64,000 nucleotides of DNA, taken from NCBI GenBank assembly GCA_003354025.1, contig PIVU01000002.1, positions 8,004-72,003 on the forward strand, in the 5' to 3' direction. The stretch comes from Nitrospirota bacterium (GTDB taxonomy: Bacteria > Nitrospirota > Thermodesulfovibrionia > UBA6902). A program made the position numbers and the translations under genes. The notes beneath the pieces were generated by a model. That model was not told where the DNA came from. It saw nothing but the letters and a program-made list of their open reading frames with translations, and did not search any database. This document shows positions 44,856-45,548 of this stretch, one piece after another; the stretch's first letter is position 1, and each line of letters starts with the position of its first letter.

Positions 44856-45355
44856 TCAAGCCTTAACGAGTACTCCCTTTTCAATCTCAATGCTCGCCTG
44901 ATATGCGATTGTATTAAGCAGTATCATCACCCTGTCACGGGCCTTCAATTCCTGATGGAATACGCCTAACAATCCTTTAAAGGGTCCCTCGTGGACCAGG
45001 ACCTTATCACCCTTATGCAATTCAGGAGCATCTATAAGGACATATCCATTTTCAATTCTTGACTGTATACTGCTAATAATGCTTTCATCTACAGTAAATG
45101 GATTACCCGTCATGTCCCCGACGATCTTTCTTACTCCCCTTGTATACCTAATCATGTGAGCATGTTTTACAGGATTAAAGCATAAAAAAATATAGCACGG
45201 AAAGAGCTCTTCCACCACTTCCTGCATTTTCCCTCTGATATATTTTTTTCTTTTCACTTGAGGATTAAACACGACAATATCGGGCACATTGATAAGTCTT
45301 TGCGCAACATGGTCTTCAATCCCCGGCTTTGTAAATATGCAGTACCAATTCTTCA
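44856..45355 (-). CDS. NusG-family specialized transcription antiterminator (UpxY/LoaP/TaA-like) heading the CIS operon
   Basis: NGN start KNWYCIFTKPGIE. KOW motif GDKVLVHEGPFKGLLG. ~165 aa. It is 90 nt upstream of the sheath gene on the same strand. Confidence 0.75.
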
Positions 45356-45548
45356 TCGAGTACGTTACCACCTATATATATGAAAATTTACCGCCCCCGG
45401 GCGGGCTACCGCCGATAGCTGTCAATGACAACTCTGCTTGTAAACATGCTATTGTGAAAATCACCGGTTACTTCCTTCTATTCAGTTACTGCCTTGACTA
45501 ATAATATCTGTACCCACTTACCCATGCATAGGACAGACAATTAAATTT

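Follow-up and report, generated by a model that had tools for sequence, protein, structure and literature searches.

The 64,000-nt stretch of DNA analyzed here (hereafter the window; contig PIVU01000002.1 of a Nitrospirota bacterium) carries, on its reverse strand, a gene for a specialized paralog of NusG that stands directly ahead of the sheath gene of an extracellular contractile injection system (eCIS) and behind a leader in which a short hairpin is followed by a sequence closely resembling the operon polarity suppressor (ops) element of Escherichia coli, the site contacted by the NusG paralog RfaH. The features that make up this arrangement, in the order in which they would be transcribed, are as follows.

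45417..45433, reverse strand: leader hairpin AGTTGTC-ATT-GACAGCT (7 bp, 3-nt loop), defined by a single-sequence fold, covariation and an alignment-free test
45416..45414, reverse strand: 3-nt spacer ATC between the hairpin and the ops-like element
45402..45413, reverse strand, as the non-template (coding) strand: ops-like element GGCGGTAGCCCG, with 10 of 12 positions identical to E. coli ops GGCGGTAGCGTG
44856..45356, reverse strand: RfaH-like NusG paralog gene (166 aa), assigned by Pfam NGN and NCBIfam scores
42374..44764, reverse strand: eCIS sheath gene (796 aa; Pfam Phage_sheath_1 and Phage_sheath_1C), beginning 91 nt after the paralog stop codon
16806..42361, reverse strand: rest of the eCIS cluster, assigned by Pfam scans and the presumed target of the factor

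The sheath gene is followed by genes for a gp19-type tube protein, a T4-baseplate-like protein, Pvc16_N, an AAA ATPase, a CIS tube protein, a VgrG-like protein (OB-fold), gp25, Baseplate_J, Tail_P2_I, DUF6519, a 1441-aa eCIS_core/DUF4157 protein and a TPR protein, all on one strand and mostly overlapping or abutting, in a cluster of ~28.5 kb that ends at 16806. The co-occurrence of sheath, tube, baseplate, spike, Pvc16, AAA ATPase and DUF4157 components in a single array identifies it, by domain content, as an eCIS. There are three long gaps within the array (37127..37339, 213 nt; 36112..36448, 337 nt; 21848..22256, 409 nt; all reverse strand), and no GGTAG or ops-like site was found in any of the three. 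The 91-nt gap between the paralog and sheath genes (44765..44855, reverse strand) holds a terminator-like hairpin (44861..44847; GCTTGACTTCCAAGC then GTTTTATA).

The paralog gene lies in an open reading frame (ORF) spanning 44856..45371 on the reverse strand, with its likely ATG at 45356, and encodes a product that reads MKNWYCIF...GDKVLVHEGPFKGLLG... Its N-terminus is an NGN domain (Pfam PF02357, 2.7e-14, 53.9 bits; cut-off 22.2) and its KOW motif is weak in Pfam (18.1 bits; cut-off 22.3); a full-length alignment of the family profile with PDB chains of RfaH and NusG nevertheless extends to residue 162, and the profile also matches isolated RfaH/NusG C-terminal-domain chains (2lcl, 1.6e-6). 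An NGN domain and a C-terminal KOW domain are hence both present, and on this sequence evidence the protein is a member of the NusG/Spt5 superfamily. An earlier sequence-only reading of the window had placed an NGN+KOW paralog gene directly upstream of the sheath gene and had regarded it as a specialized factor, distinct from housekeeping NusG and of UpxY/LoaP/TaA type. The gene, its placement and its specialized character are all borne out; the family label needs correction, as RfaH is the closest of the four families compared (RfaH, UpxY, LoaP and NusG). The NCBIfam models rank RfaH (97 bits) above UpxY (70), LoaP (59) and NusG (42), with all four scores below the curated cut-offs (for UpxY, NF033644, 70.1 bits vs 100; for LoaP, NF033641, 59.1 bits vs 125; for housekeeping NusG, TIGR00922, 42.2 bits vs 135.7), even though the operon position is UpxY-like. 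RfaH is also the top-scoring family, again below curated cut-offs, for 36 of the 36 family members tested against the RfaH, NusG, UpxY and LoaP models, and the family profile matches E. coli RfaH over its full length at 99 bits (2e-27), compared with ~50 bits for E. coli NusG. A secE/rplK context was not found around the paralog gene, whose neighbors are the gene for a sigma-54-dependent activator and the sheath gene.

Residue-level comparison points in the same direction. The structure of RfaH bound to ops defines a contact surface that includes the side chains of K10, H20, R23 and R73 (PMC5995543), and residue numbering coincides between the paralog family and E. coli RfaH in the alignment. 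K10 and the T72-R73-G74-V75 segment, which form part of this surface, are invariant across the family; the equivalents of RfaH E48 and R138 are conserved, and the NusG-specific insertion is missing. In an AlphaFold2 model of the paralog (mean predicted local distance difference test, pLDDT, 86.6), the best full-length structural overlaps are with autoinhibited RfaH (5ond, 8pfg; TM-score 0.71-0.77). As judged from its sequence, the protein is an RfaH-like specialized NusG paralog; it is neither a housekeeping NusG nor, because its scores fall under the curated thresholds, a strict RfaH ortholog.

The hairpin and the ops-like element form a composite at 45433..45402 (reverse strand), 45 nt 5' of the paralog ATG. 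The sequence-only reading had suggested looking in this leader for an element of ops or UpxY-recruitment type, and the ops-like GGCGGTAGCCCG at 45413..45402 is what the search returned. Like the ops site (GGCGGTAGnnTG) of RfaH-controlled operons, the element occupies the non-template strand of the presumed target operon's leader. We compared it with 80 loci that encode relatives of the paralog, drawn from species-representative genomes; the relatives belong to metagenome-assembled genomes of Thermodesulfobacteriota/'delta proteobacteria', Nitrospirota/Thermodesulfovibrionia and Aquificota. The coding strand has GGCGGTAGCCYG next to the paralog gene in 49 or more of the 80 loci, as part of a GGCGGTAGY... 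sequence, mostly an exact GGCGGTAGCCTG, that is separated from the gene by no more than a few hundred bases. This family consensus 12-mer shares 11 of its 12 positions with E. coli ops, and by chance ~0.1 occurrences of it would be expected in the 2.2 Mb searched.

Nearly every copy of the 12-mer is preceded by a 5' hairpin of 5-8 bp that ends 3-4 nt before G1 and whose stem sequence varies from locus to locus. A covariance model (R1) built from seven copies recovers 52 elements and has a single match in the window (45399..45443, 55.6 bits, E 1.2e-12). In the alignment of these 52 elements, 94.7% of cells pair, seven of the seven base pairs vary on both sides, double-change cells number 77 (20.8 in shuffles) and the stem has a covariation score of 0.521, which falls to 0.078 or less when the partners are slid. 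The 52-element alignment is itself fitted to R1, and the stem was hence also examined without an alignment: a perfect stem of at least 5 bp ending 2-4 nt before ops occurs in 63% of 46 distinct leaders, compared with 11.7% (maximum 24%) in 500 shuffles. G-U pairs occur in the hairpin on the sense strand only, which argues that the structure belongs to the transcript or the non-template strand and is not a double-stranded operator.

The composite invites comparison with JUMPstart, a gamma-proteobacterial element (Rfam RF01707; PMC2864571) whose Rfam consensus consists of a 5-bp hairpin, 1 nt and then GGCGGUAGCGUG. In both, a short hairpin is placed just 5' of ops in the leader of a long operon for surface or secretion functions. 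The dimensions differ: a stem of 5 bp, a loop of 8-9 nt and a spacer of 1 nt in JUMPstart compare with 5-8 bp, 3-8 nt and 3-4 nt, respectively, in the present elements, whose ops variant, GCCTG, is likewise unlike JUMPstart. No Rfam family, JUMPstart included, matched the leader; RF01707 gave no match to window positions 45300..45600 at E up to 10 or to six related loci at E up to 1, with an E. coli control at 60 bits; reciprocally, R1 scores an E. coli JUMPstart at 6.3 bits. Because RF01707 misses these elements and R1 barely scores a true JUMPstart, the composite is best described, in sequence terms, as a divergent relative or an analogue of JUMPstart.

The related loci fall into two layouts. 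The element lies 5' of the paralog start codon in the window and in L001, L002, L004, L005, L010, L015, L026, L031, L018/L022 and L038, at a distance of 20-45 nt from the ATG (172 nt in L004). This upstream layout includes nine of the nine eCIS-linked loci (the window, L001, L002, L004, L005, L010, L015, L026 and L031), in six of which the sheath gene is directly 3' of the paralog; the loci with this layout that lack an eCIS lead into a large surface protein (L018/L022) or sugar/lipid biosynthesis genes (L038). Most of the other loci carry the element on the far side of the paralog gene, 60-480 nt past the stop codon and ahead of polysaccharide genes (Wzz/GNVR, ABC-2 transporter, GDP-mannose dehydratase, UDP-glucose dehydrogenase, RmlA), which are targets of the classical RfaH/UpxY type. 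The eCIS-linked proteins cluster in a neighbor-joining tree (built without bootstrap support), with L018/L022 nested among them, and the order of element, paralog and eCIS recurs in nine loci from different orders and phyla, so that the placement of the paralog at the head of eCIS operons, noted for the window alone by the sequence-only reading, is found in nine independent loci.

We consider it likely, on the strength of these sequence comparisons, that the paralog is an elongation factor of RfaH type that depends on ops and is devoted to the eCIS operon that it heads. Five observations underlie this reading: the protein family, the conserved residues, the structured cis element, the gene linkage and the recurrence with eCIS genes. 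Pausing, binding, antitermination and promoter use would follow by analogy with E. coli RfaH. The sequence-only reading had proposed processive antitermination from gene position; the ops-like signal in the leader strengthens that proposal and makes it, by the same analogy, the best available explanation.

The region upstream of the composite contributes three further features.

46125..47543, reverse strand: gene for a sigma-54-dependent activator (bacterial enhancer-binding protein, bEBP), with Pfam Sigma54_activat (5.8e-67) and AAA_lid_14
45880..45895, reverse strand: sigma-54-type (-24/-12) promoter-like site TGGCATTCTTATTGCT, the sole TGG-N8-TTGCW match in the 64-kb window
45549..45848, reverse strand: small conserved ORF, 99 aa from Met17 (listed start 45896), with homologues in L002 and L004

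The N-terminal ~165 aa of the bEBP are not recognized by Pfam and appear by eye to form a receiver-like domain without the usual acidic pocket. The promoter-like site sits 230 nt after the bEBP stop codon and overlaps the nominal ATG of the small ORF; because that listed ATG (45896) falls inside the site, Met17 (45848) is the likelier start. L002 and L004 have equivalent sites ~240-260 nt past the bEBP gene, with zero or one mismatch to TGGCAC-N5-TTGCW; the background frequency of such sites is 0.084 per kb. The small ORF (~90-100 aa) has homologues of 43-44% identity between the bEBP and paralog genes of these loci (L002, 5066..5335; L004, 626..883), shares with them the motif ILAYL.D.P.AQDT..GII.WW, always stands between the bEBP gene and the composite in this sub-group and has no relatives in Pfam, NCBIfam or PDB. 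The order of parts common to the window, L002 and L004 is hence bEBP, promoter, small ORF, hairpin with ops, and paralog. To judge from its sequence, the sigma-54-type site next to the bEBP gene probably starts the transcript. The paralog had been described as the first gene of a 28-kb operon; it does head the eCIS cluster, but another gene probably precedes it in the transcript, since the small ORF and the promoter-like site lie upstream on the same strand.

The sigma-54 connection is not general. In the Smithella-type eCIS loci L010, L015 and L026 (e.g., L015, 9081..9659) the gene driven by a perfect sigma-54 promoter (TGGCACATCCCTTGCT) encodes a Spy/CpxP/ZraP-like periplasmic protein and lies between a divergent pair of histidine kinase and bEBP genes and the array of ops, paralog and eCIS genes; the link of this promoter to the eCIS is doubtful. 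A conserved promoter common to the upstream-type leaders was not found, and 5' of the hairpin the alignment is conserved only among close relatives. Among loci with the downstream layout, nine (L003, L007, L012, L017, L021, L025, L027, L028 and L039) have a sigma-70-like promoter (TTGACA, 17-19 nt, TATAyN) and, after it, an inverted repeat GTTCA-N5-6-TGAAC ~30-110 nt 5' of the paralog start. This repeat, a candidate operator that would act on the paralog gene itself, is absent from the eCIS clade.

Taken together, these parts suggest how the circuit may operate. The adjacent bEBP would fire the sigma-54 promoter at 45895..45880, and the transcript would run through the small ORF and then through the JUMPstart-like hairpin, the 3-nt spacer and the ops-like GGCGGTAGCCCG. 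RNA polymerase would pause at the ops-like site, exposing it on the non-template strand, with the hairpin ending 12-14 nt behind the expected pause positions C9/U11, where it may prolong the pause or limit backtracking. The NGN domain of the paralog would bind the exposed GGCGGTAG through the surface formed by K10 and T72-R73-G74-V75. By analogy with E. coli RfaH, the factor would then stay on the polymerase, exclude NusG and Rho-dependent termination, suppress pauses over ~28-35 kb and possibly couple ribosomes to the transcript. Because the loading site in the eCIS clade precedes the gene of the factor, loading should raise the factor's own production, and this positive feedback would make expression of the particle, which is costly, switch-like.

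Several observations weigh against this reading. At the level of the protein, the curated RfaH cut-offs are missed (TIGR01955, 97 vs 144.5 bits; NF006534, 92 vs 124 bits), and two residues with which E. coli RfaH contacts ops, H20 and R23, have no conserved counterpart: the window protein has R20 and N23, position 20 of the family is mostly K/R/Q and position 23 is variable. The C-terminal domain of the AlphaFold2 model (strands 118-120 and 130-132, helix 139-154; pLDDT 73-86) is predicted to be mixed alpha/beta in place of a clean helical hairpin, which makes autoinhibition of the RfaH type, with an all-alpha domain that refolds to a beta-barrel, an uncertain possibility; there is precedent for such a domain in a 2026 preprint, according to which cis-encoded RfaH-like proteins whose C-terminal domains are mixed or beta tend to adjoin long operons (PMC13015549). 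At the level of DNA, the window element has C at the ops pause-site T11, a CCCG variant common to four other loci; intrinsic-terminator-like sites are not enriched in the operon (19 found vs 18.3 expected; Rho sites are not predictable); and a sigma-70-like match (TTGAGA-16-TATGAT, 10/12, 44827..44800), itself at chance level, lies between the paralog and sheath genes, with the consequence that sheath transcription could begin 3' of the loading site.

This last possibility leads to an alternative in which the eCIS genes use their own promoter 3' of the paralog and the factor acts elsewhere or only on itself. The sigma-70-like match and the terminator-like hairpin of the 91-nt gap would both suit it, as would the fact that E. 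coli RfaH works in trans, but both types of match occur at the chance level for the region, the window contains a single ops-like element, the order of element, paralog and eCIS is maintained in nine loci across orders and phyla, and the paralogs of these loci cluster in the tree; we therefore judge it unlikely. We give similarly little credence to a LoaP-like mode, in which the leader RNA hairpin and not an ops-like DNA element would recruit the factor, chiefly to override intrinsic terminators. It would account for the strongly covarying hairpin that always precedes the conserved 12-mer, and a structure described as a NusG-RNA complex (8f5g) is among the sequence and fold matches of the family. 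However, the hairpin varies in sequence and loop and so cannot confer specificity, the invariant part being GGCGGTAGC; the residues kept in common with RfaH are DNA-contact residues; the LoaP model scores 59 bits vs 97 for RfaH; and terminator-like sites are not enriched. That the paralog is simply the organism's housekeeping NusG, as its NGN+KOW architecture would allow, is so improbable that it hardly needs to be entertained: the NusG model gives 42 bits against a cut-off of 135.7, the RfaH model scores higher in all 36 members tested, the NusG insertion is missing, K10 and TRGV are of RfaH type, and the gene is flanked by the bEBP and sheath genes in place of secE/rplK.

A remaining alternative concerns a GC-rich palindrome in the leader, which the sequence-only reading had put forward as a possible operator.

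45391..45404, reverse strand: GC palindrome CCGCCCGGGGGCGG, then TAAATTTT, flagged as terminator-like, 34 nt before the paralog ATG

The palindrome is present as described (45404..45391), with its role as an operator unsupported, because it is conserved in none of the related leaders, and it shares the last three bases (the 3' end) of the ops-like element; we have rejected it as an operator. If it is a regulatory element at all, whether operator or a leader terminator/attenuator read through by the loaded factor, its credentials are a 5-bp all-GC stem followed by TAAATTTT, the terminator-like flag and the capacity of the GGCGG/CCGCC/GGCGG arrangement to make alternative structures. Against this, the palindrome is missing from all 10 other upstream-type leaders and from ~40 downstream-type elements, the T-tract is interrupted, the whole leader folds no better than shuffles (z = -0.44), and in the minimum-energy fold the partner of CCGCC is not the downstream GGCGG but the one in the ops-like element. 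We accordingly regard a regulatory role of this kind as very unlikely; the palindrome may be a window-specific attenuator. The GGCGG/CCGCC/GGCGG segment (45413..45391, reverse strand) permits two mutually exclusive 5-bp hairpins in the window only, one of which uses the 5' half of the ops-like element, and the other, the palindrome, is no more stable.

On the same strand beyond the eCIS core, the segment 9833..15446 (reverse strand) encodes an M6-type metallopeptidase with two proprotein-convertase P domains, a papain-family protease, a metallo-beta-lactamase-fold protein and a peptidoglycan-binding protein, which may be payloads or lysis functions.

The proposed factor and its site resemble the RfaH/ops system of E. 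coli (GGCGGTAGCGTG) in the best-scoring family, the full-length alignment with the same numbering of K10 and T72-V75, the near-identical non-template 12-mer in the leader of a long operon and the polysaccharide operons that are the targets in sister loci. They differ in their scores, which lie below curated cut-offs, in the lack of conservation of H20 and R23, in a C-terminal domain predicted to be mixed alpha/beta, and in their hosts, which are Thermodesulfobacteriota, Nitrospirota and Aquificota, not Proteobacteria. Moreover, the monocistronic RfaH of E. coli works in trans, whereas the paralog gene is in cis, lying within or heading the operon presumed to be its target and placed behind its own loading site. 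Like UpxY (Bacteroides), TaA (Myxococcus) and LoaP (Firmicutes), the paralog is a specialized NusG protein encoded by the first or an adjacent gene of its long operon; its scores with the UpxY and LoaP models, however, are lower than with the RfaH model (70 and 59 bits, both below cut-offs). To our knowledge, the UpxY, TaA and LoaP systems have not been reported to use a GGCGGTAG ops signal.

There are published precedents for placing contractile injection systems under RfaH-type control. The Serratia eCIS Afp is activated by its linked RfaH homologue AnfA1, and many operons of the Photorhabdus virulence cassettes (PVC) carry ops sites between the promoter and pvc1 (PMC6748792); RfaH is listed among the adjacent eCIS regulators in the survey of Geller 2021 (PMC8213781) and again in a 2026 review (PMC12961389); and RfaH with two ops sites controls a type VI secretion system of enteroaggregative E. 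coli (bioRxiv 10.1101/2025.02.08.637259). The claim that this mode of regulation is not established for contractile injection systems is contradicted by these reports, and no new regulatory principle is established here. The window shares with AnfA1/Afp and the PVC an eCIS operon that is headed by an RfaH homologue or ops site; unlike them, it belongs to another phylum, as do its relatives, and the factor gene stands directly before the sheath gene, behind its own ops and a likely sigma-54 promoter. A tblastn search of plasmids with the paralog and the tube protein returned RfaH genes and one Serratia NusG-family gene, with no Afp cluster there. The latter (L081; Serratia proteamaculans plasmid NZ_MT039200.1, 131014..131496) lies directly 5' of a 4.7-kb RHS-repeat toxin gene, and the 12 kb around it contain no GGCGGTAG and no ops site.

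The most notable by-product of the analysis is the ops/JUMPstart-like signal itself, which is spread across three phyla and has moved 5' of the factor gene in the eCIS clade. RfaH-like genes outside Proteobacteria have been estimated at ~5% of the family, with their mode of recruitment left open, and ops binding has been proposed as a late acquisition in RfaH evolution (PMC7593976). A near-unchanged ops 12-mer with a covarying hairpin, cis-linked to the factor gene in three non-proteobacterial phyla, bears on the proposal of late ops recognition (PMC7593976), and the covarying hairpin upstream of ops also bears on the role of the JUMPstart hairpin. We suggest, as a tentative proposal that we would hold with some doubt, that the composite is an old, multi-phylum recruitment signal for RfaH-like factors and that its relocation in the eCIS clade has given rise to an autocatalytic switch under sigma-54.

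For eCIS biology, the window provides a concrete, testable regulatory circuit beyond the insect-pathogen models, made up of a bEBP, a JUMPstart-like site, an RfaH-like factor and the particle genes, and it may give a practical handle for expressing the silent eCIS clusters of uncultured anaerobes. If the signal is indeed old and multi-phylum, the composite of hairpin and ops would not be a late gamma-proteobacterial invention; and if its relocation under sigma-54 control is as proposed, an autocatalytic, switch-like circuit would decide which cells build the particle.

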